A stretch of 64,000 nt of DNA from an uncultured Lentisphaeraceae bacterium (GTDB taxonomy: Bacteria; Verrucomicrobiota; Kiritimatiellia; RFP12; UBA1067). Position numbers and translations under genes: made by a program. The notes under the pieces are model-generated. The model had not been told where the DNA came from. It ran no database searches and saw only the letters and a program-made list of their open reading frames with translations. The stretch is taken from assembly GCA_964386385.1 (NCBI GenBank), contig CAYLRN010000001.1, positions 172,706 to 236,705 on the forward strand, read 5' to 3'. Shown here piece after piece: positions 3,797-58,943 of this stretch (position 1 is its first letter; each line of letters starts with the position of its first letter).

Positions 3797-6700
3797 TCAG
3801 CGGAGGATCAGCAGCGTTCCGACGGCGGTGACGACGGAGATGCGGCCGTTCTCGAAGACGAGCGCGGAGTTCGGCGCAGCGCCAGAGACGGAACACGCAA
3901 GGTCCGCCGCGTCTGGCTCGTCGCCGGAGTACGCGAAGAGCGGGAATTTGGGCGGCAGCTTCACCGGACGGTCTGCCATCTGCACGACCGCGCCCTTCTC
4001 GGACTTGAACTTCGCAAGCGGGACGGGAGCGGACTGGCTGAAGCTCGCGCGCAGGACGCCGCCGCTCTGCAGCCACAGTTCGTCCAGCGCCTCCGGCGTC
4101 GCAGCCACCATGTCGAAGACGCCGCCGGCCGCGACGCCGAGCGTTCCGCGCACGGAACCGGCCACCGCCAGGCGCTGCCCGGCGGCCAGCGCGAAGGGCC
4201 GGTTCGTCGTCGTCGGCAGCACGAGGCTCGCGCCCGCCGCCACAGTGACGTTCGTCGCGGCGAGGCCGCACGCGCCCGAATCGCTCGCATGGGGGAACTG
4301 CGAGGGCGTCAGGATGCCGTACTTCGCAACCCAGGCGTCGGTCAGAGCCTTTACGGCCGCGTCGTCGATGAAGGAATCGTAGAGGCGCACCGCGGCGATC
4401 TCCCCCTTGTAGTTGAAGTCGCAGTTGCCGCTGCCGACAAGAACGCGCATTGCCTCGCGCGGCGTTCCGCCGGATCCGGCCGCCAAGAGGCGCATATGCG
4501 TGAAAACGCCGTCCACGACGATGCGCATGAGGCCGGTGTCAGTGTCGAAGGAGCAGACGGCGCAGTGAGGCTGGCCGTCGGCGAGGTCCCAGACGCGGCT
4601 GACAGTGGACTGGTCGCCGCGCGTAGACACGTTCTTTCCGCCGTAGCCGGCCATGACGCGGTTGCCCTCGCCCCAGAGACCCAGTCCCCAGTCCGCCCGG
4701 TTGCTGGTGGGAAGTTCCGCGCCGACCATAACTGACGACGCGAAGAAGTTGCGGTTCATGGTCACGGAATCAGGCATGTTTCCGTTCGTCGACGTGCGGA
4801 ATACGACCGCAGCCGTCCAGGCGACCTTGCCGGAGGCTGGCGAATCGCCGGCGGGGATGCCGAGGGAGGTGTTGTTTCCGTTGAAATAGACGGAGTTGTG
4901 TCCGTTGATCGCGCCCTTGCGCAGAACGGGTCCCTTCCAGGTGGAGGCGTAGGACGTGGCCGACAGGTCGCTTGTTCCCGTGATGCGCGTGACGTTCGCC
5001 TTGTTCGCCGTGCGCGTTCCATCCGTCGAAAGCCATTCCGTCACCTCCGCACCGTCGGCGACGTCGACGATCGAATCGGCGTCCCACGCGGCGGCGCCGT
5101 CGTCCGGAATTGCCGCGGGGACTTTCTCCCCCATCGGCGGAACGTCGCCCTGCGCCGAATCGTCATCCAGCTCTCCAACCGCGTAGACGCTCGCAGGCGC
5201 GCCGTACTTCCCGGCGAGTTCCACGCCGACGGCGGCCTTTTCGCTCCATGTCAGAGTCCTGCCGGGATAGAAGCGGATCTCGGCCAGCGCGCCCGTGAAC
5301 GCGAACTTGTACGGGGCGTCGGCGTCGGCAATGTTCTGGACGCCGAAGTAGATGTCCGCCGCGTTGCGCGGGCTGCGCGTCGTCTCGTCGAGGTCGACGG
5401 CCCTCTCGACGGTCTCGCCGTCGACGGAGAGCGTGAGCGTCCCGTCGCCGGCCATGGCGTAGATGGCAACGTGCGGCCGGCCGTCGGCGTAGCTGCGAGC
5501 CTTCGTGTAGACGCTGTAGTCCTTGTTGAGCTTGGCGACGCCGAAGCCGGCGCCGACATGTCCGTTCGCGCCGAAGACAAGCCCCCAGTCGTTCACGCAG
5601 CCCGGCTGTTCGCGTCCGAGAATGCCGGTCTCCATATACCACGAGTTGTCCCAGCCCAGGCCGGGCGTCGCAGTCTTGAAGACGACTGCCAGCGTCCAGT
5701 TGGTCTGCCCTGCGAGCGGATTTTCCTCCGCCACGACCTTGAGCGCGGAGTGGTCGAACACGACGCCCGGCCGGCCGTTGAACTCGTCGAGAGAGGCCTT
5801 GGGAACTGTCGTCGGATTCGACGAAAACGTCGGAACCACGGCAGTGCGCGAGGCAGTGGAGTCCGGCCATGCGACGACGTCGTCCCCGTCGGCAAGAGCC
5901 GCGACGGCGTCCTCCGCGCGCCAGGCTACGCATCCGGCGGCAGTCGCGGAAGAGGAGGAGGACATTGGCGCGCCCAGTATCTTGACCGTCCCCTCGTCGA
6001 CGGCGAGTTCGCCCGTGAACGCCGAGGCGTCCCCGAGGACGAGCGTGCCGGCCCCCTTCTTCGTGAGGACGCCGCATCCCTTGAGCGGGGCGCGCATGGC
6101 GAATCGGCGGTCCCGCGTGTCGACTGTCGCAGAGGCTCCGGAAGGGACGATCGTGTCGAGTTCGCTGAACGAGTCGGCCGTAGCCGCGAGCGTTCCGCCG
6201 CGCAGTTCGACGCGATACCAGGAGTCGGTCGTCGCGCCCGAGTTCCACCGCCCTTCAGTGGCCGAGAATCCGCGCGAACCGATTTCGAAGAGGCCGCCGG
6301 AGAGCGTGAACGTGCAGTAGCTGTTCGTGACGGGAATCTGGCGGTCGGCCCCGAACGTCGTCGCTCCGCCCAGCGCGACGCGCGGGACGCGCACGGCGCC
6401 GCCCGACTGGCGGTATGCGGCGGAGGGGGAGTTCACGACCGTTCCGTTGTCGCGCCTTGAGAACGCGAGGATCAGTCCGTCGTCGCCCGGCTGGCTGGAA
6501 GAGGTTTCGTCGACGGCAAGCGTTCCGCCCTTCACCGTGAAGTCGTGGGAGACGAGCTGGTGGCCGCCGCGGTCGCCCATCCAGAGCGTCCCCAGATTCG
6601 CCGTGCCGCCGTCCAGGACGAACTTCGGGTTGGCGTACCAGGTAGAAGAGCCGTTGCCCATGTAGAACGTCGTAGCGTCGAAGCGTCCGCCCGTCAGTTC

Positions 6701-7552
6701 GTAGAGCGAGTCGTACTTGCTGAAGCCGACCTGCGCCAGGACCGCCTTGACGTGTCCGCCGGACTGGCGGAACTCGCCGGAGTCGACGACGAAGACGCCG
6801 TTTGTGAAGACCGCGCCGTCGCCAAAGACCACCTTCGGCGCGCCCGGCTGCGTGAGAAGCAGATAGCTGCCTCCGCCACCCATGTTGACGACGACGCCGG
6901 GGAAGACGTCCTTCCAGTCCGCCTTGTCGGTGAACGTCAGTTCGAGCCGGGCGCTTCCGCTCCAGCGAAAGTCCTGCGCCCAGACGCCAGGTTTCGCCAG
7001 GCGCGCGACATTGTGTCCGCCGGACGCGAAGCGGTAGCCGAGCGTCCCCGCATAGGCCGGCGGCGCATTGTGGCAGGCCAGCACGGCGTTGGAGACTACG
7101 AGTTCGGAATTGCCGCCGATGGCGGCGTTGAAAAAGACCTTTGCCAGTCCGAAATCCCATGTCTGGTCCGCGGCCGTCGCCAGGCGGACGCTGAACGTGA
7201 GGTTGGAATCCGCCCCTGCGGCATGGCGGGCCGTCAGGCCGTCCGCGCCCAGGGCCAGCGTCGTCGTCGCGCCGGCCGCCGCGTTCGTGCCGACGACGAC
7301 GGCGCCGTTGGGGACGTTCGTGAGGACGAGGCCGCCTAACGCGAGGCTGGCGGAATTCGTCAGGGCAGCCATTCCCGGCCGCGCCGCGAAGTCGACCCAC
7401 GCGACGTCGTCCTCCCCCGGCAGGACACCGCCCGCCCAGTTCGCCGCGACGGCCATGTCCGCCGATTCCGCGCCGGAGAACCTTACGACCTCGCCCCGCG
7501 CCATCGCGAGAGCAAGCCCCATTGCGACTGCACAATACGCCGCCTTGACCAT
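3797..7552 (-). CDS. Giant secreted/surface protein with autotransporter-associated beta-strand repeats and two LamG (concanavalin-A-like) domains
   Basis: I place the start at ATG 7552, preceded by AAGGAGG, which gives the signal peptide MVKAAYCAVAMGLALAMA. The 131 Arg-rich codons upstream in the track ORF are rejected. PATR-like segment: KKGAGTLVLGDASAFTGELAVDEGTVKILG. LamG-type endings: LAEIRFYPGRTLTWSEKAAV..AGKYG and IAAVRLYDSFIDDAAVKALTDAWVAKYG. Confidence 0.8.
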   Translation of the reverse strand: MVKAAYCAVAMGLALAMARGEVVRFSGAESADMAVAANWAGGVLPGEDDVAWVDFAARPGMAALTNSASLALGGLVLTNVPNGAVVVGTNAAAGATTTLALGADGLTARHAAGADSNLTFSVRLATAADQTWDFGLAKVFFNAAIGGNSELVVSNAVLACHNAPPAYAGTLGYRFASGGHNVARLAKPGVWAQDFRWSGSARLELTFTDKADWKDVFPGVVVNMGGGGSYLLLTQPGAPKVVFGDGAVFTNGVFVVDSGEFRQSGGHVKAVLAQVGFSKYDSLYELTGGRFDATTFYMGNGSSTWYANPKFVLDGGTANLGTLWMGDRGGHQLVSHDFTVKGGTLAVDETSSSQPGDDGLILAFSRRDNGTVVNSPSAAYRQSGGAVRVPRVALGGATTFGADRQIPVTNSYCTFTLSGGLFEIGSRGFSATEGRWNSGATTDSWYRVELRGGTLAATADSFSELDTIVPSGASATVDTRDRRFAMRAPLKGCGVLTKKGAGTLVLGDASAFTGELAVDEGTVKILGAPMSSSSSATAAGCVAWRAEDAVAALADGDDVVAWPDSTASRTAVVPTFSSNPTTVPKASLDEFNGRPGVVFDHSALKVVAEENPLAGQTNWTLAVVFKTATPGLGWDNSWYMETGILGREQPGCVNDWGLVFGANGHVGAGFGVAKLNKDYSVYTKARSYADGRPHVAIYAMAGDGTLTLSVDGETVERAVDLDETTRSPRNAADIYFGVQNIADADAPYKFAFTGALAEIRFYPGRTLTWSEKAAVGVELAGKYGAPASVYAVGELDDDSAQGDVPPMGEKVPAAIPDDGAAAWDADSIVDVADGAEVTEWLSTDGTRTANKANVTRITGTSDLSATSYASTWKGPVLRKGAINGHNSVYFNGNNTSLGIPAGDSPASGKVAWTAAVVFRTSTNGNMPDSVTMNRNFFASSVMVGAELPTSNRADWGLGLWGEGNRVMAGYGGKNVSTRGDQSTVSRVWDLADGQPHCAVCSFDTDTGLMRIVVDGVFTHMRLLAAGSGGTPREAMRVLVGSGNCDFNYKGEIAAVRLYDSFIDDAAVKALTDAWVAKYGILTPSQFPHASDSGACGLAATNVTVAAGASLVLPTTTNRPFALAAGQRLAVAGSVRGTLGVAAGGVFDMVAATPEALDELWLQSGGVLRASFSQSAPVPLAKFKSEKGAVVQMADRPVKLPPKFPLFAYSGDEPDAADLACSVSGAAPNSALVFENGRISVVTAVGTLLILR

Positions 7553-7625: not shown

Positions 7626-7653
7626 ATTATATCCGTTTTTTTTTTCTCGTCAA
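7626..7653 (-). promoter_or_regulatory. Sigma70-type promoter TTGACG-N16-TATAAT whose spacer contains an A10 homopolymer
   Basis: The minus strand reads caaTTGACGag(A)10cggaTATAATgcttc. The -35 is at 7653-7648, the -10 at 7631-7626 and the T10 run on the plus strand at 7636-7645. It lies about 70 nt upstream of ATG 7552. Confidence 0.65.
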
Positions 7654-7677: not shown

Positions 7678-8526
7678 TTATGGGAGTCGGACGGCGACTT
7701 TCTTCGGCGGCATGACGTCGGGGAGACCGAGGGCCAGGTACTTCGCCCGCGCGTAGTCGTTGTACTCCAGCTCCACGCGAGCGTCCTTTGCGATGCCCAT
7801 CCCGTCGAGGTCGCGATGGCGCGCGGCAAGGTCTGCGCCGTCCGTCAGATTGGGAACGACGAGCAGGCGGACTTCCATTTTCGCCTTCGCCGCGACGAGC
7901 CGGGCGAGATTGCGCAGAATGAGCTCGTTTGATACGCCTGTGCATCGGCGATGGAGATCAGCGCCGTGCGCCTTGTAGTCGGGAAGCCACATGTCCGTCA
8001 CTGGAAGCATCGCCTCGATTGCGGCTGGCGGCGCGTGAAGCGACGTGTCCAGGCAGGTCCGCAATCCCGCCGCGCGGAAGCGCGCGAAGAGCTCCGCCGC
8101 CCATTCCCAGAAGAAGAGCGGTTCGCCGCCGGAGAGAGTGACGCCGCCGCCCGTCCGCTCGTAGAACGGCCTGTCTTCAAGCGCCAGCTCGACGATGCGC
8201 TCCATTGTCATCGGCTTCCCGTAGAACTTCAGCGCACCGGTCGGACACGTCGCCTCGTCGTTCGTGCAGACCTTGTGTCGAACGCACTTGTGCCGGAAGC
8301 GCGCCAACTGCGGCTTCGGGTCGATCGACTCCGGGTTGTGGCACCACAGGCATTTCAGCGGACACCCCTTGACGAAGAACGTCGTCCTCATCCCCGGGCC
8401 GTCCCATATTGCCATCCGCTTCACGTCGAGAAGCAGCGGCGTACGCAGCGGACGGCCGGCAGCGAACGCCGGCGCCAGAGCACATGACGCAACGCCTGCC
8501 AGGAATCCCTTGCGAGTCGTCTTCAT
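7678..8526 (-). CDS. Glycyl-radical enzyme activating protein (radical SAM) with a Tat-like N-terminal leader
   Basis: The core LLLDVKRMAIWDGPGMRTTFFVKGCPLKCLWCHNPE (CX3CX2C) is typical of PflA-family activases. ATG 8526-8524 overlaps the GRE stop (ATGA). The N-terminus is MKTTRKGFLAGVASCALAPAFAAG. The accessory ferredoxin-like Cys motifs look reduced (CVRHKVCTNDEATCP). Confidence 0.85.
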   Translation of the reverse strand: MKTTRKGFLAGVASCALAPAFAAGRPLRTPLLLDVKRMAIWDGPGMRTTFFVKGCPLKCLWCHNPESIDPKPQLARFRHKCVRHKVCTNDEATCPTGALKFYGKPMTMERIVELALEDRPFYERTGGGVTLSGGEPLFFWEWAAELFARFRAAGLRTCLDTSLHAPPAAIEAMLPVTDMWLPDYKAHGADLHRRCTGVSNELILRNLARLVAAKAKMEVRLLVVPNLTDGADLAARHRDLDGMGIAKDARVELEYNDYARAKYLALGLPDVMPPKKVAVRLP

Positions 8527-11393
8527 TGCGCGATTCCCTCCGCGCGCCGGATGTAGGCCTCCTGCTCCTTTCGCGGCATGTCGTTCCAGCGGACGTTCCA
8601 GCCGCACACGCGCACCTGCAGGTTCTCGTATTTTTCGGGCCGCCGCTGGGCGTCGCGCAGCGTCTCCACGTCCACGACGTTGAAATGGATCGCGCATCCG
8701 CCGTTCGCGAAATACGTCTGCACCAGCGCCTTCATCGCGTCAAGCCCCTTATCGCCTCCCACGGCGTACGGGAGAAGCATGACGTCGAGCGGGAAGTCGC
8801 CCGGCAGGTCGCGGGCGTCGAGGTGGGCGACGGATAGCAGAAGCGCCGTAACGCCCTCCGTGTCGGCGCCCATCGTGGGGGAGACGTTCTTGCTCATCTC
8901 CTCGCCGGCGCGGCGTCCGTCCGGCGTCGCGCCCGTGGCGCGGCCAAGGTCGATGAACTGCTTCGCGCAGTGTCCGCTCGCCTCGAACGCGCCGTTGCGC
9001 GAATTCGGGACGCCGTTCAGGCATTTAGCGTAGGCCTTGACGATTTCGTCGGCGAGATGGTTCGCCTCCGCGTCGTTGTTTCCCCACTTGCGCTTCGAGC
9101 GCTGCATCCTGAGGCGGAGGTCTTCACGCCCTTCCCAGTTCTTCGCCATCAGCGCGCCGAGTTCGGCAAGCGACATCTCACGGCGCTCGTAGACGATTTC
9201 CTCCACGGCGAGCAGCGCGTCGACCGCGGTGCCGAGGCCGGTCTGGAGGACGGAGGAGAAGTTGCCGCGCCGAGTGCCGTCGACGAATGCGTCCTTCCCG
9301 GTCATGACGCTGTATTCCGTGGCAAGCGAGAAGAGAAGGGACGGGTTGACTTCGGCAAGAGTCCTCTCCCACTCGAACGCGAGATTGCGGCTCTCGACGG
9401 TCGTCTCCGCAAGCCGCGCCAGGTAGGCCCGCCTGAACGCCGCGAAATCGGCGGCGGCGAAAGTCCCGTCCTTCGCGCGATCGAGCAGTTCCTCGACGAC
9501 CTTCAGCAGATTGACGTGGGAGATGCCGGTGCCGTTGTAGCCGTCCCTGAGGCCGAACTCGTAGCAGCCGGCGACGACCATCGCGCGGCAGTCCTCGTCA
9601 GTGCAGTCGCGTATCTTGCCCTTCAGCACGCGCGCCATCGGCTCTTCGCCGCAGAAGACGAGCGAACGGTGTCGGCGCGCCATGTCGAGGGCCTTACGCC
9701 AGACCCAGTCGGGGGTGGAGGCCGCCATCTTGAGCTGGACTTTCGGCGTCGGCAGGGCGAGTTCGTCGTGCACTTCAAGGAGAATGCGCGAGACCTCGTT
9801 GTACGCGCTCGTGCCGTCGGCGTTCGTGCCGCCGAAATAGACGGGCTGCCCCCAGTAGTTGTCGATCGACCCCCACTGCCACCAGAAGTGGCGGAGCTGT
9901 TCGCGGAACTCCGCCTCGGTCGTCCGCCCCGCCGCGATGTCTGCGCGGTAGTAGGGCGTAAGGAGGCGGTCGAGGTTGCCGAGGGAGCGGACCTGGAAGC
10001 TGTCGAAGTTCTCGCTCATCACCCAGTCGAGATAGATGAAGAGCAGGACGTCATAGGCCGTCCGCGGCGCGCCCGCGCGCAGGCGGCGCAGGGAATCGCG
10101 CTCCTTCTCGAGGCGGGAGACGCGCCGCGCATGAACCGCGCCGGGCGGGTCCGCCGCCTCGCTCCGCAGGGCAGCCAGACGACGCTCCGACTGGACGACG
10201 AGGCGGTCCAGATGGCGAAGGACGGCGTCTGCGGCCATGAGACGGCTTTCGTAGTAGGCGTTTCCGTCCTTCCAGTTCGCCAGCAGACGTTCCCGGAGGC
10301 CGGGGAAGCCGAGCGGCAGAATAGCGTCCCAGTCGGGGACGGAATGGTCGTAGTCCTTCCACATGTTCCAGCGTCCGGCCTTGCGCCCGGCATGGATCTT
10401 CGCCGGCACGTCCGGACACGTCCGGGCGTCCACCTCCCCGCTGCGCTGTCCCATGATGGAATTGAGAGGATGCCCGAACCTGTGCTTCGTCCAAAGCGCG
10501 TAGGCGGGAAACCAGTCAAGGGGCGAGACGTCTATCGCCGCGCGGTCGCAGCAGAACGCGAAGAGCTTAGCCTTTACGACGCTCCACGGCATTCTGCCCT
10601 TGCTCTCCTCCGCAAGCCTTGAGAGCGCCCCGCGCATCTCCTCGCGCTCAAGGCCGGTGGCGGGGTCTGCGACAGGGGTCCGCCACTTGAAGCGAAGGTA
10701 GTCCGCCTCGTTCGCGAACGGCGCGATCGTCCGTTCCTCGTACGGGGTCAGGACGACGTTGCGCAGACGTATCGCCACCCGTCCCTGCGGATAGGGCTGC
10801 GTCTGGAAGCCGATGCGTCCCGCGCGCGGAACTGTCACGAAGCAGCGGCTCACCTCCACTCCGTCCCACGAACACGCGACATCTCCCTCGACGCTGCGGA
10901 CGGCGAGGCGATGCCAGGCGCCGGGCGTCCGTCGCGCCGCTACGGCGCGGGGGATGCGATGGTAGCCGACTCCCGACATCGGACCCGACTGCGGCGTGGC
11001 GCCGACCATCAGCCCCGGCCATCCCCACAGGTCGCCGATGTCCGTCGTCTTCAACTGGAATTCAAGACCCGACGCCTGGTCGCCGTCGCCGACAAGAACG
11101 GCCAGCCCTCCGTCGCCGAACGAATCGTCGGCGTACTGTATTTCGGCCGTGAGCTTGAAATCGCGCCAGCGTTCCCTCGTCGTCAGGACGAGCGGCCTGG
11201 CGCCGTTCATGGTCAGGACGCCGTCCGCCAGGCTGAACGTCTCCGCGACGTCGGCGGCGGACTTCGCCATCGGGCAGTCGAAGTCCGCCAGCGTCCGCCC
11301 GGCGAACAGATCCACCGGCGGAAGCGCGGTCGGCGCGGCAAGTCCCGTCCATGCGGCAAGGACCCCGGCGGCGATGGCCATTTCAAGTTTCAT
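8523..11393 (-). CDS. Glycyl radical enzyme (PFL2/dehydratase-like) fused to an N-terminal signal-like leader and a DUF1080/3-keto-disaccharide-hydrolase-like domain
   Basis: AAGGAGG lies 6 nt upstream of ATG 11393. The C-terminal glycine loop is NLQVRVCGWNVRW and the Cys loop is VVAGCYEFG. The N-terminus is MKLEMAIAAGVLAAWTGLAAP, followed by DGVLTMNG...WRDFKLTAEIQY...GLEFQL...WHRLAVRSVEGDVACSWDGVEV...GRIGFQTQ...VAIRLRNVVL, the DUF1080 pattern. Confidence 0.85.
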   Translation of the reverse strand: MKLEMAIAAGVLAAWTGLAAPTALPPVDLFAGRTLADFDCPMAKSAADVAETFSLADGVLTMNGARPLVLTTRERWRDFKLTAEIQYADDSFGDGGLAVLVGDGDQASGLEFQLKTTDIGDLWGWPGLMVGATPQSGPMSGVGYHRIPRAVAARRTPGAWHRLAVRSVEGDVACSWDGVEVSRCFVTVPRAGRIGFQTQPYPQGRVAIRLRNVVLTPYEERTIAPFANEADYLRFKWRTPVADPATGLEREEMRGALSRLAEESKGRMPWSVVKAKLFAFCCDRAAIDVSPLDWFPAYALWTKHRFGHPLNSIMGQRSGEVDARTCPDVPAKIHAGRKAGRWNMWKDYDHSVPDWDAILPLGFPGLRERLLANWKDGNAYYESRLMAADAVLRHLDRLVVQSERRLAALRSEAADPPGAVHARRVSRLEKERDSLRRLRAGAPRTAYDVLLFIYLDWVMSENFDSFQVRSLGNLDRLLTPYYRADIAAGRTTEAEFREQLRHFWWQWGSIDNYWGQPVYFGGTNADGTSAYNEVSRILLEVHDELALPTPKVQLKMAASTPDWVWRKALDMARRHRSLVFCGEEPMARVLKGKIRDCTDEDCRAMVVAGCYEFGLRDGYNGTGISHVNLLKVVEELLDRAKDGTFAAADFAAFRRAYLARLAETTVESRNLAFEWERTLAEVNPSLLFSLATEYSVMTGKDAFVDGTRRGNFSSVLQTGLGTAVDALLAVEEIVYERREMSLAELGALMAKNWEGREDLRLRMQRSKRKWGNNDAEANHLADEIVKAYAKCLNGVPNSRNGAFEASGHCAKQFIDLGRATGATPDGRRAGEEMSKNVSPTMGADTEGVTALLLSVAHLDARDLPGDFPLDVMLLPYAVGGDKGLDAMKALVQTYFANGGCAIHFNVVDVETLRDAQRRPEKYENLQVRVCGWNVRWNDMPRKEQEAYIRRAEGIAQ

Positions 11394-36772: not shown

Positions 36773-39700
36773 TCACCTGAACTGGATGAGCGTTCCGAGA
36801 TGGAGCCAGCGCACCTCGTCGAGCACCGAGAAGCCGACGTCGCCGACGACCGAGAGGTCGTGCACGGCGTTCCCGTTCGCGACGCCATCGCGAAGGCCGT
36901 CCGAACCGGCGTCGAGCGGCCACCAGCCGAGCAGCCCAGACTCCGTGCCTTCCGGAGGACGTCCGCAGTGGCGGGCGACCTCGCCGGGCGTCAGCGCCCG
37001 GTCCCAGAGCGTGACCTGCGAGAGCGTTCCCTTGACCGAGAAGCCGCCTACGCAGTGTCCGCCGATGCGTAGGCTGTACCAGTCCGTGGCGGGATTGACG
37101 AAATTCTCCGCGCCGTCGGCGGAATCCACCAGCCGCCCGTCAAGGTAGAGCCGCGCCTCTGACCGGCCCAGGTCGTGCGTGAAGGCCAGCTGGTGCCAGC
37201 GGCCGGAATTGCGGACGGCGGAGGCGTCGAAGCCCAGCTCAAGCATGTTGTTGTCGAAGTCGCGCGTCTGGACACTGATCTTGAAGAACGAACTGTCCGT
37301 CCTGCTTGCGTTCGCGAAGCAGCAGAACCCCGGCGTCCTGTTGCCCAAGGCGCCCTTCGAGACGATTGCGCCGTAAAGTTCGTCGTCCAGCCCGCGCCCG
37401 CCGACGTCCAGGTCGCGAAACCACACGGTGAACGAGAAGTTCGTGAGCGACGGCCCCCACCCGGCGTTCAGGCAGGACGGCCCGTACGATCCCGTGAGAT
37501 GCGGAACGCCGGCCGAGCCGCCGGGGCCTGCAAGGAACGCCGCGCCCTCGGCGGAGGGATAAAACGCGCCGACGACGAGGTCGTACATCCCCGCCACGCC
37601 GTCGGCCTTGCGTTCGCATGGGATGAACTTGCGCGCGAGCGTCCCGTCCTGCCAGATCGCCGCGGCGTGGAGGCGTCCCCATCCAGACGCTTTCGGCCCA
37701 GCCTTCAGCAGGCTTATCTGCGCCGTGGACGTCCCCGTCATGGGATAGTCCAGCGCGGCAGACTTCGTTCCGTCCACGTAGAACGCGCCGCCCCTCGCGT
37801 CGAGCGTCAGGCGGGCCCGCGTGCCTGAAACGGCCACCACGGGCGACGACGGGGCGTTCCACCCCAGTGCGTCCTCAAGGCCGGCGTCCATGCAGCGGCT
37901 CACCCAGCGCATGTTGTTCAGCGACGTGAAGGCCTCGAAGAAAAACGCCCCGGCGGGAACGTCCGCCTCCGCGCAGTCGCGCGCGCCGACGACATGGCGG
38001 TTCAGGGTGGCGCTGACGTTGTACGGCGTGAAGTCGACCGTCGCCGTCGTCCCGGGCGTCGCGTACACGCACGTCGCTATGGACTGCGCGCCCGTGGCGA
38101 CGACGTAGTCGAGGGCCGCGTATCCGTCGGGAAGTTCCGAAACGTCGAGGTACGCGCCGCGCTCGAACGCATCCGAACCGGCGGCGTTCACGTGGAACGC
38201 GCCCGTGACGCGGTCGTACAGGCCCGCGGCGCCGTCCGTGATGCGCTCGAACGGCGCGAGGTCGCGCACAAGGACGTCTCCCTCGTAGATCTTCCAGCCG
38301 TAGACGCGAAGCCCGTAGTACGTGAACGGCGTGAGCAGTCCGTTCGCCGCGCACGACCCGCAGAGGGCAAGGGAGTTCACGGAGTGCGTAGTCGTCTTCA
38401 CGGCGGCATGCGTCGACTGGACGCCGAACGAGACCGCTCCGGAGGCGGCGTCCACCTCGAACGCGCCGCGGGACGTGCGGTTCTGGACGTCCCAGCTGTA
38501 GATGTCCGCCCCCGACGCATACGATCTGTCCATCCAGAGGAACAGCTGGTTGTCCTGAAAGTCGTAGCCGCCGAAGTTAACAGTCATGCAAACGACGCCG
38601 TCCGGCTCCGCGCAGCCGAAGAATGACGCGCCTTTGACGCCGTTGACAGGCTTGCGGTTTGCGGGGCTGCCGACGAACTGGATGTCGCCCGCAATGCGCG
38701 TGGAGGGATTGGGGCAGTAGCCCAGGTCGAAGCACTGCGTGCCGGTGGACGCGACGTACTCGACCGGGCGCAGCGCGCCGGCGGGCGTGACGGTGAACTC
38801 CTTCGTGACGGCCCATCCCGCGCGCTCGCCAAGGCCGGTCACGGTCACGGTGCCGGCACCAGGCGCGGCGTTGTCCGCATACGACAGTTCGTAGTCCGTC
38901 CCCTCCTCCAGCGGCAGTTCCGTGACGGGGTCGACTACGCGGGGCTTCGGACGGCACGGGTTCGCGCCGTCATACACCTGGTCCGGCACGGGGCGGACGA
39001 CGAACGAAGCGTTCTCTCCTAGGAAGCGGGCGCGGTCAAGCGTCGCGTTGCGGTCTCTCTCGTATGGCGTGAGGGCGCGGTCGTAGACCCGGATGGCGTG
39101 GACGCGGACGTCGGCGCGCGGGTTAGAGAAGAACGCGAACTTCGCCCCCCAGTCCTCGGAGTACGAATCCATCGCGAAGTCTGAGAGGGCGATGGCCTCG
39201 CCGTCGCAGAAGAAGGCGCTTGTAGCGGTGTTCGTGCCGTAGGTGAGGGAAAAGACGTGGACCTCCGCCGTCGTCATGTCCTCCGGCTGCCAGTGCCATA
39301 TCCGCCTCTTGGACGCGCTTTCGGGGAAGAAGGCGTAGAAGCCGTTGTCCTTGTCCCTGCGATAGCCGAAGCTTCCGCGCGGAGTGTCGGCAACCGTCTG
39401 CAGGTTGTAGTAGTTGTCGGAGAACTTCCAGGCGACGTTCTGCATGACGACCTCGACCGTGAACGCCCCGGCGTCGGGTCCTGTCGACAGACCCGCCAGG
39501 GCCGCCATCTCCGTCGTGTCCACGCCGGCCGTCTTGTCCGGCTTCGCGAGCGAGAGAAAGGCGTTCGCCTCGGCGGCGACAAGACTCGTGGCGGGAATGG
39601 CGAGGTCGTTGCCGTTCCCTGAAAGGTCTTTCCAGACCGTCGGCGAATCGGAGTGCGAGCGGACGCCGTCCACAATCGCGTTGTCTATGCCGTCCCAGTG

Positions 39701-39847
39701 CGCGACGAGGCCGTTCGTGACGTAGGCGTCCGACCCGAACTCGCCGGCGGAAGCCGCCGTCCCCAACGCAAGCGCCGCCATGAACGCCGCCACCGGACGC
39801 GCCATGCGCCCACTTCCCATCGACCTCGACCGATCTATCGATTTCAT
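36773..39847 (-). CDS. Giant secreted LamG-domain (concanavalin-A-like lectin) protein
   Basis: AAAGGAG RBS before ATG 39847. Signal-like N-terminus MKSIDRSRSMGSGRMARPVAAFMAALALGTAASA. N-terminal LamG-like start: LVAHWDGIDN...VWKDLSGNGNDL. C-terminal LamG: WHQLAFTHDLGRSEARLYLDGRLV...LSQVTLWDRALTPGEVARH. Confidence 0.8.
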   Translation of the reverse strand: MKSIDRSRSMGSGRMARPVAAFMAALALGTAASAGEFGSDAYVTNGLVAHWDGIDNAIVDGVRSHSDSPTVWKDLSGNGNDLAIPATSLVAAEANAFLSLAKPDKTAGVDTTEMAALAGLSTGPDAGAFTVEVVMQNVAWKFSDNYYNLQTVADTPRGSFGYRRDKDNGFYAFFPESASKRRIWHWQPEDMTTAEVHVFSLTYGTNTATSAFFCDGEAIALSDFAMDSYSEDWGAKFAFFSNPRADVRVHAIRVYDRALTPYERDRNATLDRARFLGENASFVVRPVPDQVYDGANPCRPKPRVVDPVTELPLEEGTDYELSYADNAAPGAGTVTVTGLGERAGWAVTKEFTVTPAGALRPVEYVASTGTQCFDLGYCPNPSTRIAGDIQFVGSPANRKPVNGVKGASFFGCAEPDGVVCMTVNFGGYDFQDNQLFLWMDRSYASGADIYSWDVQNRTSRGAFEVDAASGAVSFGVQSTHAAVKTTTHSVNSLALCGSCAANGLLTPFTYYGLRVYGWKIYEGDVLVRDLAPFERITDGAAGLYDRVTGAFHVNAAGSDAFERGAYLDVSELPDGYAALDYVVATGAQSIATCVYATPGTTATVDFTPYNVSATLNRHVVGARDCAEADVPAGAFFFEAFTSLNNMRWVSRCMDAGLEDALGWNAPSSPVVAVSGTRARLTLDARGGAFYVDGTKSAALDYPMTGTSTAQISLLKAGPKASGWGRLHAAAIWQDGTLARKFIPCERKADGVAGMYDLVVGAFYPSAEGAAFLAGPGGSAGVPHLTGSYGPSCLNAGWGPSLTNFSFTVWFRDLDVGGRGLDDELYGAIVSKGALGNRTPGFCCFANASRTDSSFFKISVQTRDFDNNMLELGFDASAVRNSGRWHQLAFTHDLGRSEARLYLDGRLVDSADGAENFVNPATDWYSLRIGGHCVGGFSVKGTLSQVTLWDRALTPGEVARHCGRPPEGTESGLLGWWPLDAGSDGLRDGVANGNAVHDLSVVGDVGFSVLDEVRWLHLGTLIQFR

Positions 39848-39932
39848 CCGCGTCTCCTTTCAGCGTGGAGGTGAAAGCGCCCGCCGCGCGCGGCGCAGCG
39901 CAACCAAAGACAACATTCGATTATTGCGGTGA

Positions 39933-39958
39933 ATTATATGCTTTTTTTTTCCTGTCAA
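39933..39958 (-). promoter_or_regulatory. Promoter-like TTGACA-N14-TATAAT with an A9 homopolymer in the spacer
   Basis: The minus strand reads cccaTTGACAgg(A)9gcaTATAATtc. The T9 run on the plus strand is at 39942-39950. It has the same architecture as 7626-7653 but the spacer is 2 nt shorter. Confidence 0.55.
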
Positions 39959-40019
39959 TGGCGCTGGCCGCTTTTATTTCGTCCGCCGGCGAAATAGGCA
40001 GCGGATTTCCGCGCCCATG

Positions 40020-40048
40020 TTGACGCGGGGAAAACGGCGTGGTAGAAT
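40020..40048 (+). promoter_or_regulatory. Promoter TTGACG-N17-(TGg)TAGAAT placed 7 nt before ATG 40056 (leaderless transcript predicted)
   Basis: TTGACG at 40020-40025, a 17-nt spacer, then TAGAAT at 40043-40048 preceded by TG. There is no room for an RBS before the ATG at 40056. Confidence 0.6.
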
Positions 40049-40055
40049 GGTCTGC

Positions 40056-42080
40056 ATGAATCGGCGACTGAAAATACCGTACGGCATAAAGGACTTCAAG
40101 CGGATACGCGAAGAAGGCTACTACTACGTCGACAAGACGGCGTACGTCCGGCGGATGGAGGAGCGCGACAGCTTCGTCTTCTTCGCGCGCCCCAGGCGCA
40201 TGGGCAAGTCCCTCTTCGTCGAGACGCTCCGCCGCTACTACGACGTCAACGAAAAGGGCAACTTCAGGAAGCTGTTCGGGGGGCTTGACATCGGCGAGAA
40301 CCCCACCGAGAACGCGAACAGGTACCAGGTGCTCGCGCTCGACTTTTCGCTGGTCGCCGCCAGTTCCGAGCGGACCCTCGAGCAGGCGTTCGACGCATAC
40401 ATGGACGTCTGCCTCGACCGATTCTTCGTCCGCTATCCGAACTGCTATCCGCCGGAGGACAGGCCGGCGTTCGCCGCGCTCACCCCGGAGGCGAAGTTCG
40501 CCTACCTCTCGCAGACCGCGAATGAGCGCGGAGCGCAGATCTATCTTGTCATCGACGAATACGACAACTTCACGAACACGATGCTGCGCAGCGAGGCGAA
40601 CAGGGACTACCGCGCCGTCACGCACGGCGCCGGGTTCTACCGCGGCTGGTTCAAGAAGTTCAAGGAGGCCTGCTCGCGCATATTCATGACAGGCGTCTCG
40701 CCCGTGACGATGGACGACCTCACGAGCGGCTTCAACATCGCCGCCAACCTCACCCAGCTCCCCGCGTTCAACGCGATGGCGGGCTTCTCCGAGGCCGAGG
40801 TCGTGAAGATGTACTCCGACTTCAAGGGCGTCGGCGAGTTCACGGACGGCGACCCCGCCGAAATCGTGAAGTCCATCAAGCCGTGGTACGACGGCTACTG
40901 CTTCTCGACGGCGAAGATAGGGAAGGAATGCGTGTTCAACAGCGACATGGCCCTCTACTACCTGAAGTCGCTCGTGGACGACGGACGGCCGCCGGAGAAC
41001 ATGGTGGACGCCAACGTCAGGACCGACTACGAGAAGCTGAAGATCATCGCCGAGATTCAAAGGCAGCACAGGTACTGCGCAGGGACAGGCTCCTGTGCGG
41101 TGCAGGACTCTGATGTCCAAGACGGCGCAATGGCTTCCGCGCCCGCTTCCGCAGCCGCAGGGCAGGCCACTGCGCCGGCAGCCGCACAGGCGCTTGCATC
41201 AGGGTTCCGCACCGCATCTGGCGCTGCGGTGGCGGATGCTTTCCATGTGCCTCCGCTGGCGCCTGCGGCGGCAGATGAGCCGGCCATTGCACCGTCTTTG
41301 CCATCAGAGTTCCGTACCACATCAGATGCCGCAGAAAACGCCGCGCTCGACAGCGTGGACGTGCTGCCGGTCACGGAGCGGCTGGCGGCGACCGGCGAAA
41401 TCTCCTTCGACCTCGTGGAGAGCTTCCCCGCGGACAGGATATCCGACCTCGCGAACTTCCACTCGCTCTTCCACTACTACGGCATCGTGTCGATGCAGGG
41501 AAGGCGCAGGGGGAGCACCGTGTTCCGCATCCCCAACGTCTGCGTCCGCCGCCAGCTCTTCGACTACCTCCGCGACACCTACCACAGGACGCGGGCTCCG
41601 GACTGGATCGAGTGGTCGCATCTCGCATCGGCTTTCGCCTACGACGGCGACTGGAAGCCGTTCCTCAGGCGCCTTGCGCGGGACTACGCGGAGACCACGC
41701 CCGTTCGCGGCGGCCTCCAGGGCGAGATCCGCGTACAGGGCTACATGCAGGCGGAGTTCGGACACCTCAAGTTCTATCTCCTCGCGCCGGAGATGGAGCT
41801 TTCCCGCGGCTTCTGCGACTTCTGCCTCTTCCCGGAGAGGGTCCACTACGGCGACGCCTCGCACAGCTATCTCATCGAACTGAAGTACGCGAAGGCTGAG
41901 GCCTCGGACGAGGACATGGCCGGTCTGGTCGCGGAGGCGAAGGCGCAGCTTGCGAAGTACCGCGCCGACCGCTCCGTCCCGTCCCTCGCGCGCGGCACGA
42001 CCCTGCACCAGATCGTCTACGTCTTCCGCGGGACGGTTCTGCATACTCTGGAGCAATTCAGTTGCGAACAAATGGCTTAA
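40056..42080 (+). CDS. AAA-ATPase-like / PD-(D/E)XK nuclease family protein (PDDEXK_9, DUF1703-type), paralog 1
   Basis: MNRRLKIPYGIKDFKRIREEGYYYVDKTAYVRRMEE..FVFFARPRRMGKSLFVETL...YLVIDEYDNF...IFMTGVSPVTMDDLTSGFNIA. The C-terminal nuclease-like part is FCDFCLFPER...SYLIELKYAK. It contains an in-frame Ala-rich insert of about 92 aa at 41070-41346 that is absent from paralog 2. Confidence 0.8.
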   Translation: MNRRLKIPYGIKDFKRIREEGYYYVDKTAYVRRMEERDSFVFFARPRRMGKSLFVETLRRYYDVNEKGNFRKLFGGLDIGENPTENANRYQVLALDFSLVAASSERTLEQAFDAYMDVCLDRFFVRYPNCYPPEDRPAFAALTPEAKFAYLSQTANERGAQIYLVIDEYDNFTNTMLRSEANRDYRAVTHGAGFYRGWFKKFKEACSRIFMTGVSPVTMDDLTSGFNIAANLTQLPAFNAMAGFSEAEVVKMYSDFKGVGEFTDGDPAEIVKSIKPWYDGYCFSTAKIGKECVFNSDMALYYLKSLVDDGRPPENMVDANVRTDYEKLKIIAEIQRQHRYCAGTGSCAVQDSDVQDGAMASAPASAAAGQATAPAAAQALASGFRTASGAAVADAFHVPPLAPAAADEPAIAPSLPSEFRTTSDAAENAALDSVDVLPVTERLAATGEISFDLVESFPADRISDLANFHSLFHYYGIVSMQGRRRGSTVFRIPNVCVRRQLFDYLRDTYHRTRAPDWIEWSHLASAFAYDGDWKPFLRRLARDYAETTPVRGGLQGEIRVQGYMQAEFGHLKFYLLAPEMELSRGFCDFCLFPERVHYGDASHSYLIELKYAKAEASDEDMAGLVAEAKAQLAKYRADRSVPSLARGTTLHQIVYVFRGTVLHTLEQFSCEQMA

Positions 42081-56232: not shown

Positions 56233-56276
56233 TCTACCAAAAAGAGGGCGAGTAGTGAACTGGTGAATTGCCGGCC

Positions 56277-57074
56277 TCAGCGGCCGGACAGGGCGGACGA
56301 CGCGGGCAGAATCCGCGTCGTGTAGCGCGTCTTTTCCCAAGGCGTCCCCTTAGGCGTGATACATTTGATGGCGGCCTTCCACATGCGGCCGTCAAGCTGG
56401 AGGACGCCGACGGCGGTGTCCTCCTTCACGTTCTCGACGGACGACAGGTCGGCGGGAGCGACGAGCGTGAGCGACGGCACGGACTTCCCGTTCGTGGAGT
56501 TCCTGCCGGCGTAGCAGCCGAAGTAGAAGCGCCCGTTCGCGTAGTCCGCGGTCTGAATCCCCAGATTCGTCCAGCCGCTGCGCAGCACGTGGCGGTCGAC
56601 GAAGCGGAAATCGGGCGTGTACTCGTAGACGTAGTTCACGTCGTGCGTAGGCGGAAGGCCGCCGACCACGAAGAAATGCCCGTCCTTGTACGTCATGCCG
56701 CCCGCGCCGTGGCGCAGTTCCGGGACCTTCCAGCGCCTGACGAAGGAGAGGTCGTCCGCATTGTAGGCGTAGACCCAGCTGTCCGCCTTGTCCTCCGTGT
56801 TGAACTGCCCATGGTTGACGGCGACGTACACCTTGCCGTCGACGACGCAGAGGTCGCCGTGGTGGGTCTTGAGCCCTTTGGCGACGGCGAGCAGCTTTCC
56901 GTTCAGGTCGGTCCGCGCAAGTTCGACCGTATGCGACCACCAGACGTTCGTGCCGTCGGTGCAGACGCCCTGGAGATGGGGCGGCCATTCGCCTTCGCTC
57001 AGGATTTCGTTCTGCGGCGCCGCGCCGAACGCCAGTCCGCGGATGAGGGCGATTGCCAGCAGCGATTTCTTCAT
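56277..57074 (-). CDS. Secreted hypothetical protein, beta-propeller-like
   Basis: Signal peptide [20 protein letters not shown]. It has repeated strand-rich segments and I recognise no family. Confidence 0.6.
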
Positions 57075-57167
57075 GTCGGTCCTTTCATGTGCGATGTCGA
57101 TTCATATGCGATGCAGATGTGCCGCACATTCTACCACGTTTCGGCGCGGCATAGAATCCGCCGAATG

Positions 57168-57176
57168 TGCTATAAT
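57168..57176 (+). promoter_or_regulatory. Extended -10 element TGcTATAAT placed 6 nt before ATG 57183 (leaderless transcript predicted)
   Basis: tgTGcTATAATggcgccATG. A second TAGAAT box lies at 57152-57157. The -35 element is weak. Confidence 0.5.
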
Positions 57177-57182
57177 GGCGCC

Positions 57183-58943
57183 ATGAGACAGGAGCAGATA
57201 CCATACGGCGTCAAGGACTTCAGGCGGATTCGCATGGAGGGTCGCTACTACGTGGACAAGACTGCGTACATTCGGGAACTGGAGAGGCGCGCGGACTTCC
57301 TCTTCTTCGTACGCCCGCGCCGCTTCGGCAAATCCCTCCTCTGCGAGACGCTGCGCTGCTACTACGACGTCGCGGAGAAGGAGAATTTCGAAAGGCTCTT
57401 CGGCGGACTGGACATAGGCCGGAATCCGACCGACCAGCGGAATCGCTACTTCGTCCTGTCGCTCGACTTCTCCCGCGTCAACGCCTGCATAGGCGCGACG
57501 TGGGCGGACAAGTTCGAGTCGTACATGGACACGGCGGTCTGGAACGCCATAGAAAACCACAGGTCGCAGCTCTCCGCCATCACCGACGTCGACGGACTCC
57601 TGCGGACGCCGGGAGCGGAGACGAAGTACAGCCGCCTCGTGGAATTCGTCCATCGCCTCGGCCTCGGCGTCTACGTGATTGTGGACGAGTACGACAACTT
57701 CACGAACGAGATCGTCTCCACCGTGGGGAAGGACCCCTACAAGGAGATGACGCACGGGTCCGGTTTCTACCGCGGGTGGTTCAAGCAGTTCAAGGCGACG
57801 TGCGACCGCATCTTCATGACCGGCGTCTCGCCCGTGACGATGGACGACCTCACGAGCGGGTTCAACATCGCGACGAACATCTCGCAGGAGCCCGAGTTCA
57901 ACGCGATGGTCGGGTTCACGGCGGACGAGACGCGCCGCCTCTTCGAGGACTTCCAGGGGACGAGACTTTTCACCGACGCGGCGGGGACGCACCTCGCGAC
58001 GGTCAAGGCCTGGTACGACAGCTACTGCTTCTCGAAGCCACTGGCGGGACGCGAGACGCTGTACAACTGCGACATGGCGCTCTACTACCTGTCCAAGCTC
58101 GTCGCCACCGGCGCCGCGCCGGAGAACCTCGTCGACGCGAACATCCGGAGCGACTGGAAGAAGCTCTCGGCGATCCTCGCCGCGCAGCGCCACGCGGAGA
58201 CGTTCGACGGCGTCCTGCCGCTCACGGAGGAGCTGGCCGACAGGGGCGAGGTCTCCTTCGCGCTCGTGGACAGCTTCCCGATAGAGGGGATTCTCAAGGA
58301 GGAGAACTTCAAGTCGCTCTACTACTACTACGGAATCGTCACCATGTCGCGCTTCGTGCGCGGCGACCTCCAGTTCCGCGTCCCGAACGAGTGCGTCCGG
58401 CGGCAGATCTTCGACTACATGCGCGACGAGTACGCGAAGCGCCCCAACGCCGTCGACACATCCGAGTTCACGGAGCGCTTCGACGCCTTCGCGTGGGACG
58501 GCAAATGGCGGGAGTTCCTGACGTACCTCGCGGAGAAGTACCGCGACAACGGCTCGCCCCGCGACGGCATATGCGGCGAGGCGCGGATCAACGGCTACCT
58601 CCGCGCGTACCTCACGATGAAGAGCGTCTACGTGGTGAAGCCCGAGCTGTCGCATCCGTGCGGCTACTCCGACTACGCGCTCTTTCCTAACAGGTCGCTG
58701 CCGGATGGAAGCGTTCCGGAGCAGAGCTACCTCATCGAGATGAAGCACTCGAAGGCGGACGCACCCGACTCGGAGATTGCGACGAAGCACGAGGAGGCAC
58801 TGGCGCAGCTGCGCGCGTATGCGGCAGACCCGGCGGTGGCCGCCCTCGCCGGCGGCACCCCCGTCCACTTCATCTGCTACGAGTTCCGCGGACGCGAGCT
58901 TGTGCGCCTCGAGGAAATCCCCGTCTCCGAACTGATGGCGTAG
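57183..58943 (+). CDS. AAA-ATPase-like / PD-(D/E)XK nuclease family protein (PDDEXK_9), paralog 2
   Basis: MRQEQIPYGVKDFRRIRMEGRYYVDKTAYIRELERRADFLFFVRPRRFGKSLLCETL...VIVDEYDNF...IFMTGVSPVTMDDLTSGFNIA...YSDYALFPNR...SYLIEMKHSK. It is collinear with 40056..42080. The 305-codon upstream extension in the track is rejected because it is antisense to a real gene. Confidence 0.8.
   Translation: MRQEQIPYGVKDFRRIRMEGRYYVDKTAYIRELERRADFLFFVRPRRFGKSLLCETLRCYYDVAEKENFERLFGGLDIGRNPTDQRNRYFVLSLDFSRVNACIGATWADKFESYMDTAVWNAIENHRSQLSAITDVDGLLRTPGAETKYSRLVEFVHRLGLGVYVIVDEYDNFTNEIVSTVGKDPYKEMTHGSGFYRGWFKQFKATCDRIFMTGVSPVTMDDLTSGFNIATNISQEPEFNAMVGFTADETRRLFEDFQGTRLFTDAAGTHLATVKAWYDSYCFSKPLAGRETLYNCDMALYYLSKLVATGAAPENLVDANIRSDWKKLSAILAAQRHAETFDGVLPLTEELADRGEVSFALVDSFPIEGILKEENFKSLYYYYGIVTMSRFVRGDLQFRVPNECVRRQIFDYMRDEYAKRPNAVDTSEFTERFDAFAWDGKWREFLTYLAEKYRDNGSPRDGICGEARINGYLRAYLTMKSVYVVKPELSHPCGYSDYALFPNRSLPDGSVPEQSYLIEMKHSKADAPDSEIATKHEEALAQLRAYAADPAVAALAGGTPVHFICYEFRGRELVRLEEIPVSELMA

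Follow-up and report, generated by a model that had tools for sequence, protein, structure and literature searches.

The locus analyzed here raises the question of whether a promoter with two perfect hexamers standing unusually close together has its activity set by the length of the adenine run between them. The promoter lies upstream of a gene for a LamG-domain protein in the window, i.e., the whole stretch of 64,000 nt that was analyzed, and reads TTGACA-GG-A9-GCA-TATAAT on the minus strand (39958-39933). Both hexamers match the consensus (12/12 positions), and the spacer of 14 nt is outside the 17 ± 1 nt range of sigma70-type promoters. The first-pass annotation had described the perfect hexamers, the A9 tract, and the 14-nt spacer at 39933-39958, and we verified coordinates and letters on the minus strand. 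Because the A9 repeat sits between the −35 and the −10, its length alters the geometry of the promoter.

This arrangement is far beyond chance expectation. The window is 65% GC, and in it the pattern TTGAC-N10-22-TATAAT occurs at two sites (39958-39933 and 7653-7626) and in none of 100 shuffles. Moreover, matches to A8 are found only within the tracts of these two promoters (shuffle mean, 0.36), and the same two tracts are the only A/T homopolymers longer than 6 in the 64 kb. The second site, referred to here as the sister promoter, precedes a gene for a protein with PATR repeats. The features of both loci are collected in Table 1.

Table 1. Coordinates of the features of the LamG promoter, the sister promoter, and the divergent promoter in the window
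Feature	Coordinates	Strand	Details
−35 hexamer TTGACA (LamG promoter)	39953..39958	-	TTGACR also in orthologues L002 and L003-L012
14-nt spacer GG-A9-GCA (LamG promoter)	39939..39952	-	orthologues GG(AG)2-A10-12-GTA, 19-21 nt
A9 homopolymer (T9 on the plus strand), slippage-prone element	39942..39950	-	homologous tract A10/A11/A12 in related samples
−10 hexamer TATAAT (LamG promoter)	39933..39938	-	TATAAT in L002; TACAAT in L003-L012
Predicted 5' leader of the LamG gene, ~78 nt	39848..39926	-	predicted transcription start ~7 nt past the −10
Conserved GC hairpin motif GCGCCGCGCGCGGCGGG in LamG leader	39896-39880	-	common to the sister leader
SD AGGAG in LamG leader	39858-39854	-	
LamG gene, 1024 aa, signal peptide, C-terminal tail GTLIQFR	36773..39847	-	Pfam Laminin_G_3, E = 3.4e-16
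Sister promoter TTGACG-AG-A10-CGGA-TATAAT, 16-nt spacer	7626..7653	-	A10 at 7636-7645
Motif CCGCCAAGCGCGGCGGG in sister leader	7596-7580	-	
Sister gene, exported PATR-repeat protein, 1251 aa, signal peptide, C-terminal tail GTLLILR	3797..7552	-	PATR/autotransporter beta-strand repeat
Divergent promoter TTGACG-17-TGgTAGAAT of AAA-ATPase_like/PDDEXK_9 gene	40020..40048	+	ATG at 40056, leaderless-type

Several other readings of the sequence around the LamG promoter were considered. No other −35 was found at 16 to 18 nt from the TATAAT, the candidate hexamers CATTGA, CCATTG, and GCCATT scoring 0 to 1 of 6. A second −10 (AATAAT/GATAAT) located 7 nt downstream from the LamG −10 was rejected, as only poly-A is present at its −35 position. 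Also rejected was a terminator on the plus strand, where ATTATATGC-T9 has no stem; no terminator-like site was detected at 39930-39960 on either strand. A MerR-type long-spacer promoter was rejected because the spacer is 14 nt, of the form GG-A9-GCA, and without a dyad. Scans of the whole window with Rfam at gathering thresholds and for tRNAs gave no match.

The LamG promoter is located in a divergent intergenic region of ~200 nt; its −10 ends 86 nt ahead of the ATG (39847), which is preceded by an SD. An AlphaFold2 model of the product (pLDDT 76) is all-beta, and its fold matches sialidase lectin wings, laminin LG domains, the receptor-binding domains of BoNT, and a Bacteroides carbohydrate-binding protein. 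The product, which has a signal peptide, is predicted to be an exported protein with all-beta lectin/LamG jelly-roll domains. The LamG homologues carry the name Kiritimatiellae, PurM encoded in the window shares 86% identity with a protein from a "Kiritimatiellia bacterium" MAG, and in the LamG group the motif AYVxxGL[VI]A[HQ]WDGIDN directly follows the signal peptide. The C termini of the LamG and PATR proteins (36773-36800 and 3797-3825) consist of a G, five hydrophobic residues, and R/K, and a tail of the form [PA]-G-[TLF]-(4 hydrophobic)-[RK]-COOH is found on nearly all large Kiritimatiellia homologues (P0002-P0050), as in HLGTLIQFR, AVGTLLILR, PGLMILVR, and APTLLIFR. Neither Pfam nor NCBIfam has a model for this tail, which resembles a signal for sorting or anchoring that is specific to the lineage. 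Because the LamG and PATR proteins and almost all homologues end in one tail, we assign them to one class of exported proteins. Both products look like exported or surface proteins, which are the usual cargo of expression switches of this type.

The first-pass annotation had argued that the LamG promoter is kin to the promoter at 7626-7653, that their flanks are alike (aTTGAC, a G ahead of the A-run, and aTATAAT), and that both 5' leaders share a sequence. The flanks were verified in both sequences, and GCGCGGCGGG is present in both leaders; of its three copies in 128 kb (both strands), two are those in the leaders, on the right strand. Kinship was borne out in both directions by profile searches: using nhmmer, a profile restricted to the 7626 site and its orthologues detected the 39933 site (E = 8.6e-8; second-best match, 0.027), and the reverse search from LamG matched the sister site at E = 9.4e-6. 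Judged by these scores, the two promoter-leader regions are significantly related. Both contain TTGACR, a G directly ahead of the A-run, aTAYAAT, the leader element CCGCC...GCGCGGYGGG, and the SD. The GC hairpin in both leaders is conserved in sequence without covariation, and the leaders do not fold more stably than shuffled sequences (MFE z-scores ~0); given that the hairpin lacks both thermodynamic and covariation support, we make no structural claim for it.

The architecture with an A-run within the promoter is found at two loci, and the nhmmer profile search detected no third promoter-leader copy in the window or the fetched loci. A wider scan with the pattern AAAAAAAA-N1-5-TAYAAT-N25-55-GCGCGGYGGG returned four unrelated matches (Clostridia and Alphaproteobacteria) among 185k GTDB representatives, which do not include the genome of the window, and five unrelated matches with 42-59% GC in JGI metagenomes, consistent with chance. 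The TTGAC-polyA-TATAAT architecture is absent from the deeper LamG orthologues with ~45% identity (L013, L014, L019, and L020), which confines the promoter-leader cassette to a clade of at least ~65% identity.

Between the −35 and the ATG, the LamG promoter region is 0.79-0.85 identical to its orthologues, versus 0.69-0.71 at four-fold sites. Upstream of the −35, identity is 0.33-0.43 because the upstream neighborhood differs from that of the orthologues; TTGACR is kept exactly at the boundary of the homology although the sequence further upstream is unrelated. From this comparison, we take the LamG site to be a real promoter that is conserved beyond the neutral level upstream of the gene. The conservation of TTGACR also bears on whether this hexamer acts as a −35 at all. 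If transcription relied on the −10 alone, on another sigma factor, or on an activator that tolerates flexible spacing, then 14 nt would be irrelevant, and spacers in the LamG group that span 14-21 nt without a 16-18 class would be accounted for. However, TTGACR is kept in all lineages, even beside unrelated upstream sequence, the distance from TTGACR to TATAAT in the sister promoter is fixed at 16 nt in five lineages, no TGn extended −10 is present at 39941-39939, and the spacer lacks a MerR-type dyad operator. We therefore regard an unused TTGACA as highly improbable.

The tract itself differs among relatives, as became clear when close relatives were compared in the way that the first-pass annotation had proposed. 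The 82% LamG orthologue L002 has the spacer GGGGAG-A10-GTA of 19 nt. The 80% orthologue P0003 is present as an identical protein in many samples, from which ten contigs were retrieved (L003-L012); seven of the ten have GGAGAG-A10-GTA (19 nt), and the remaining three have A11 (20 nt), A12 (21 nt), and GGAGAGAG-A10, i.e., an extra GA unit (21 nt), respectively. Hence, all differences in LamG spacer length are changes in the A-run or in AG/GA repeat units. The values found in the lineages examined are 14, 19, 20, and 21 nt, and none of these lineages has an allele with 16-18 nt. As a caveat, an alternative register for the −10 of the orthologues (TATATA/TATACA, with a 17-nt spacer) lacks the conserved final T and was not adopted. 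The window locus has only one other assembly, L001 (SRR10277277); over 6,312 nt the two are 100% identical, and L001 most likely derives from the same data. In the sister promoter, a comparison of L024 and L025, which encode an identical protein, gave a sole difference in 4,547 nt, namely A10 in L024 (16-nt spacer) versus A9 in L025 (15 nt).

Is this variation biological? Over 3,544 aligned columns, the ten P0003 contigs have only three SNP sites, yet all three long homopolymers differ. Two of these belong to a terminator upstream of the P0003 promoter (L003-L012, ~77-136), which consists of a hairpin (z = −4.1), T9, CGA, and a second T9, and which serves a co-directional gene in place of which the window has the divergent AAA-ATPase gene. 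Both T-runs are T9 or T10 among samples and vary as often as the promoter tract. This suggests that the variation is general to long homopolymers rather than specific to the promoter, and sequencing or assembly may have contributed noise to it. In the extreme, Illumina or PCR slippage at homopolymers of at least 9, together with bubble-popping in the Logan assemblies, would have generated the polymorphism at a normal, constitutive promoter, an explanation that cuts across the other readings. It fits with all three long homopolymers varying by about one unit and with the contigs being automated assemblies for which coverage is not given. Conversely, the +2 allele (A12) and the insertion of a GA unit would be atypical as consensus errors and argue against noise alone; a fixed difference of 14 versus 19 nt between lineages is no artifact; and the contigs are otherwise nearly identical. 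Altogether, we judge a purely technical origin of the polymorphism to be unlikely. We also noticed that all 17 assemblies with the P0003 orthologue, among them the contigs L003-L012 of 3541-3579 nt, break ~230-260 nt upstream of the gene and soon after the stop codon, which suggests either repeats in the flanks or differences there among co-existing strains.

The different upstream neighborhood of the window could also point to a promoter in decay. According to this explanation, the region upstream was rearranged, the spacer lost (AG)2 and one A, the promoter is crippled, and the gene is silent or being lost. The divergent AAA-ATPase gene indeed replaces the co-directional gene and terminator of the relatives, sequence identity drops to 33-43% upstream, and both orthologous lineages have a spacer that is 5 nt longer. 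A decaying promoter, however, is expected to accumulate substitutions as well, whereas the hexamers in the window are perfect and better than TTGACG and TACAAT in orthologues, and the 1024-codon ORF, the SD, and the leader motif are all intact. For these reasons, decay strikes us as quite improbable.

The sister promoter gives an indication of the spacing preferred in this lineage. In four lineages with 78-81% protein identity (L021, L022, L023, and L024), it reads TTGACG-AG-A10-YGGA-TATAAT with a spacer of 16 nt. In L031 (65% protein identity), it reads TTGACA-GCGAG-A7-TGGC-TATAAT; here, the tract is only A7 because substitutions, rather than indels, break the run, and the spacer stays at exactly 16 nt. 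Identity from the −35 to the ATG of the sister promoter is 0.87-0.88, versus 0.70-0.72 at four-fold degenerate sites. A spacer kept at 16 nt in five lineages argues for selection on the hexamers and on the distance between them. Further promoters have spacings of 17 nt (40020) and 18 nt (16233); the putative promoter at 40020 is an example of sigma70-type promoters with 17 nt being in use in this genome, and the whole set shows a lineage that probably uses TTGACA/TATAAT boxes 16-18 nt apart. That the tract is A10 in each of four diverged lineages is more suggestive of stability than of switching. In the L031 leader, the CCGCC...GGCGG motif is absent, and a terminator-like hairpin (GCGCATTCC-CTCGT-GGAATGCG followed by TTTTTTGTTTT) is located at 456-490 between the promoter and the start codon; this hairpin is a possible attenuator.

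Stability of this kind is what would be expected if the architecture were fixed, with the A-run having a structural role (e.g., as a rigid AT-rich spacer), the indels between lineages being ordinary fixed ones whose effects are weak or particular to a lineage, and LamG expression being set by other regulators. The sister promoter with exactly A10 and 16 nt in four lineages agrees with this, and so do the spacers of 14 and 19 nt in the LamG group as lineage-fixed majority states and the missing 16-18 nt allele; in addition, a spacer of 19 bp between consensus hexamers is still active in E. coli (PMC8695583). Against it, contigs from different samples that encode identical proteins differ in the tract (A10/A11/A12/extra GA for LamG and A10/A9 for the sister). 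Moreover, AT-richness alone does not require an uninterrupted unstable run in both promoters and in all close lineages at 65% GC, and 14 nt is outside every other promoter spacing met in the lineage. On balance, we consider a fixed architecture rather unlikely, albeit the strongest of the competing explanations.

What does a spacer of 14 nt imply for transcription? The first-pass annotation had suggested a putative OFF state. When random spacers were placed between consensus hexamers in an E. coli library, those of 15-19 bp gave high expression and longer ones gave less (PMC8695583). In the same library, spacers of less than 15 bp formed the weakest class and were still above background (PMC8695583). 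The part of the suggestion that stands is that 14 nt falls in the weakest class; because 14 nt is low yet above background and 19 nt is active, "OFF" is better read as "weak". By the E. coli yardstick, the 19-nt majority allele of the orthologues may be active, and the alleles of 20-21 nt may be weaker. The window allele is one A below the functional range in E. coli and two below the 16 nt conserved in the lineage. Since the spacer is 2 nt shorter than the constant 16 nt of the sister, we predict that transcription of the LamG gene was weak in the population that was sampled. This weak state is extrapolated from E. coli, and we regard it as a reasonable inference.

We propose the following mechanism. 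The spacer of the LamG promoter is built almost wholly of slippage-prone repeats, i.e., the A-run and, in relatives, the neighboring AG units. Slipped-strand mispairing at replication would cause repeat units to be gained or lost, the changed distance between −35 and −10 would alter how one RNA polymerase holoenzyme contacts both boxes, and LamG expression would rise with one extra A (15 nt) and likewise with two to three (16-17 nt). For this organism, we infer the effect of spacer length on transcription and, likewise, the reversibility, the rate, and the adaptive value of switching. A poly-A/T tract is counted as potentially phase variable by PhasomeIt from a length of at least 10 (PMC6321876). 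The A9 tract of the window is one below this cut-off, compared with A10-A12 in the orthologues and A10 in the sister. To reach the preferred spacing, the window allele would need at least one slippage step, and probably two to three, which argues against a clean one-step switch.

Taking these lines of evidence together, we find it about evenly balanced whether slippage-prone repeats set the spacer length, and through it the strength, of the sigma70-type LamG promoter, which would be in a low-activity state here; as such, it is a credible candidate for a mutational expression switch of the kind already known from pathogens. The first-pass annotation had gone further and envisaged a phase-variable family. 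Tract lengths do differ in related populations as this idea implies; at the same time, no LamG allele with 16-18 nt was found, and the T-runs of the terminator vary equally. A broader interpretation, which we put forward only tentatively, is that a small family of homologous promoter-leader cassettes (TTGACR, A-run spacer, TATAAT, and a CCGCC...GGCGG leader hairpin) drives a class of C-terminally tagged surface lectin/PATR proteins peculiar to this lineage of gut or rumen-type Kiritimatiellia, that slippage in the A-runs tunes or switches their expression, that the A-runs are for this reason held against strong GC pressure, and that the alleles lie at functional edges, i.e., between 14 and 15 nt and between 19 and 20 nt.

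Nearly all documented cases of phase variation by simple repeats come, to our knowledge, from host-adapted pathogens such as Neisseria, Haemophilus, Campylobacter, Helicobacter, and Mycoplasma, and a literature search combining Kiritimatiell* with phase variation found no paper connecting the two. In Neisseria meningitidis, porA and opc have poly-G/poly-C between −35 and −10, and the spacer length results in graded expression. In Haemophilus influenzae, TA repeats are located in the promoter spacer of hifA/hifB. The LamG promoter resembles those of porA and opc in that a homopolymer is present in the sigma70-type spacer of a gene for a surface protein, which is here predicted. However, porA and opc have G/C tracts with far higher slippage rates and belong to a pathogen with a documented phasome, whereas the tract of LamG consists of A/T and does not exceed the usual cut-off for mutability (for general context, see PMC5084427).

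Even closer parallels come from mycoplasmas. As related in a passage of PMC10502178 that refers to Citti & Wise 1995, the promoters of the paralogous vlp surface-protein genes of Mycoplasma hyorhinis contain a poly(A) tract in which indels set transcription; in a second such passage, which refers to Persson 2002, the Vmm gene of Mycoplasma mycoides has a TA repeat in the promoter spacer. The LamG and PATR genes resemble the vlp genes in having an A tract within the promoters, conserved 5' regions, and genes for surface proteins, which are here predicted. They differ in that vlp encodes lipoproteins in low-GC Mollicutes with ON/OFF switching proven by experiment, while the LamG/PATR pair comprises two candidate loci with shorter tracts (A9-A12) in a 65% GC Kiritimatiellia MAG; also, unlike in vlp, no optimal-length allele is present among the LamG promoters examined. 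As in Vmm and hifA/hifB, changes in repeat units shift the distance between −35 and −10, as exemplified by (GA)2 to (GA)3 in the LamG orthologues, but dinucleotide repeats are the main switch in Vmm and hifA/hifB, whereas the GA unit of LamG, with 0-3 copies, is short and plays a lesser part than the A-run. By analogy, we suggest that the M. hyorhinis vlp and M. mycoides Vmm systems are the closest known ones, with porA/opc and hif also close. MerR-type promoters, which have spacers of 19-20 bp (PMC11049809), have in common with the LamG promoter a nonoptimal spacing, with the LamG orthologues at 19 nt. They differ in that a dyad operator in the spacer is remodeled by the bound regulator, whereas the LamG spacer is poly-purine/poly-A without a dyad and the window allele is 14 nt.

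If the LamG promoter is indeed a mutational switch, the known range of the mechanism would come to include the PVC group and polysaccharide degraders that are commensal or environmental; if the cassette interpretation also holds, the PVC superphylum would gain its first described contingency-locus system, one that belongs to a high-GC commensal and not to a pathogen. A switch would, moreover, pinpoint surface lectin-like proteins as being under fluctuating selection, e.g., by phage, host immunity, or changes in substrate. It would also call for caution in annotating metagenomes, because the expression state can hinge on the length of one homopolymer, which is unreliable in assemblies. In case there is no switch, the two sites are simply consensus promoters of unusual clarity from a phylum that has received little study.

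Additional observations concern the neighboring genes. The window has a second AAA-ATPase_like/PDDEXK_9 gene, which is preceded by an extended −10 (TGcTATAAT, 57168-57176, plus strand) with the ATG at 57183. In both AAA-ATPase_like/PDDEXK_9 genes, the extended −10 ends 7 nt ahead of the ATG in a leaderless-type arrangement. Because the −10 of the second gene is placed 7 nt from the ATG at 57183, the first 311 codons of the ORF at 56268-58943 are probably untranslated. The first AAA-ATPase promoter has the 11-mer CGTGGTAGAAT as its extended −10 (40038-40048, plus strand), and ATTCTACCACG (57129-57139, plus strand), located ~30 nt upstream of the second AAA-ATPase promoter, is CGTGGTAGAAT inverted. 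The inverted copy suggests a divergent promoter or a shared cassette beside both genes.

Next to the sister promoter, two genes (7678-11393, minus strand) separate a 1127-aa acyltransferase/ACPS gene from the PATR promoter; one encodes a glycyl-radical enzyme whose N-terminal domain is 3-keto-disaccharide-hydrolase-like, and the other encodes its radical-SAM activase. In the three orthologous lineages L021-L023, the acyltransferase gene directly adjoins the PATR promoter. The lack of the glycyl-radical pair at this junction points to an insertion in the lineage of the window or a loss in the others.
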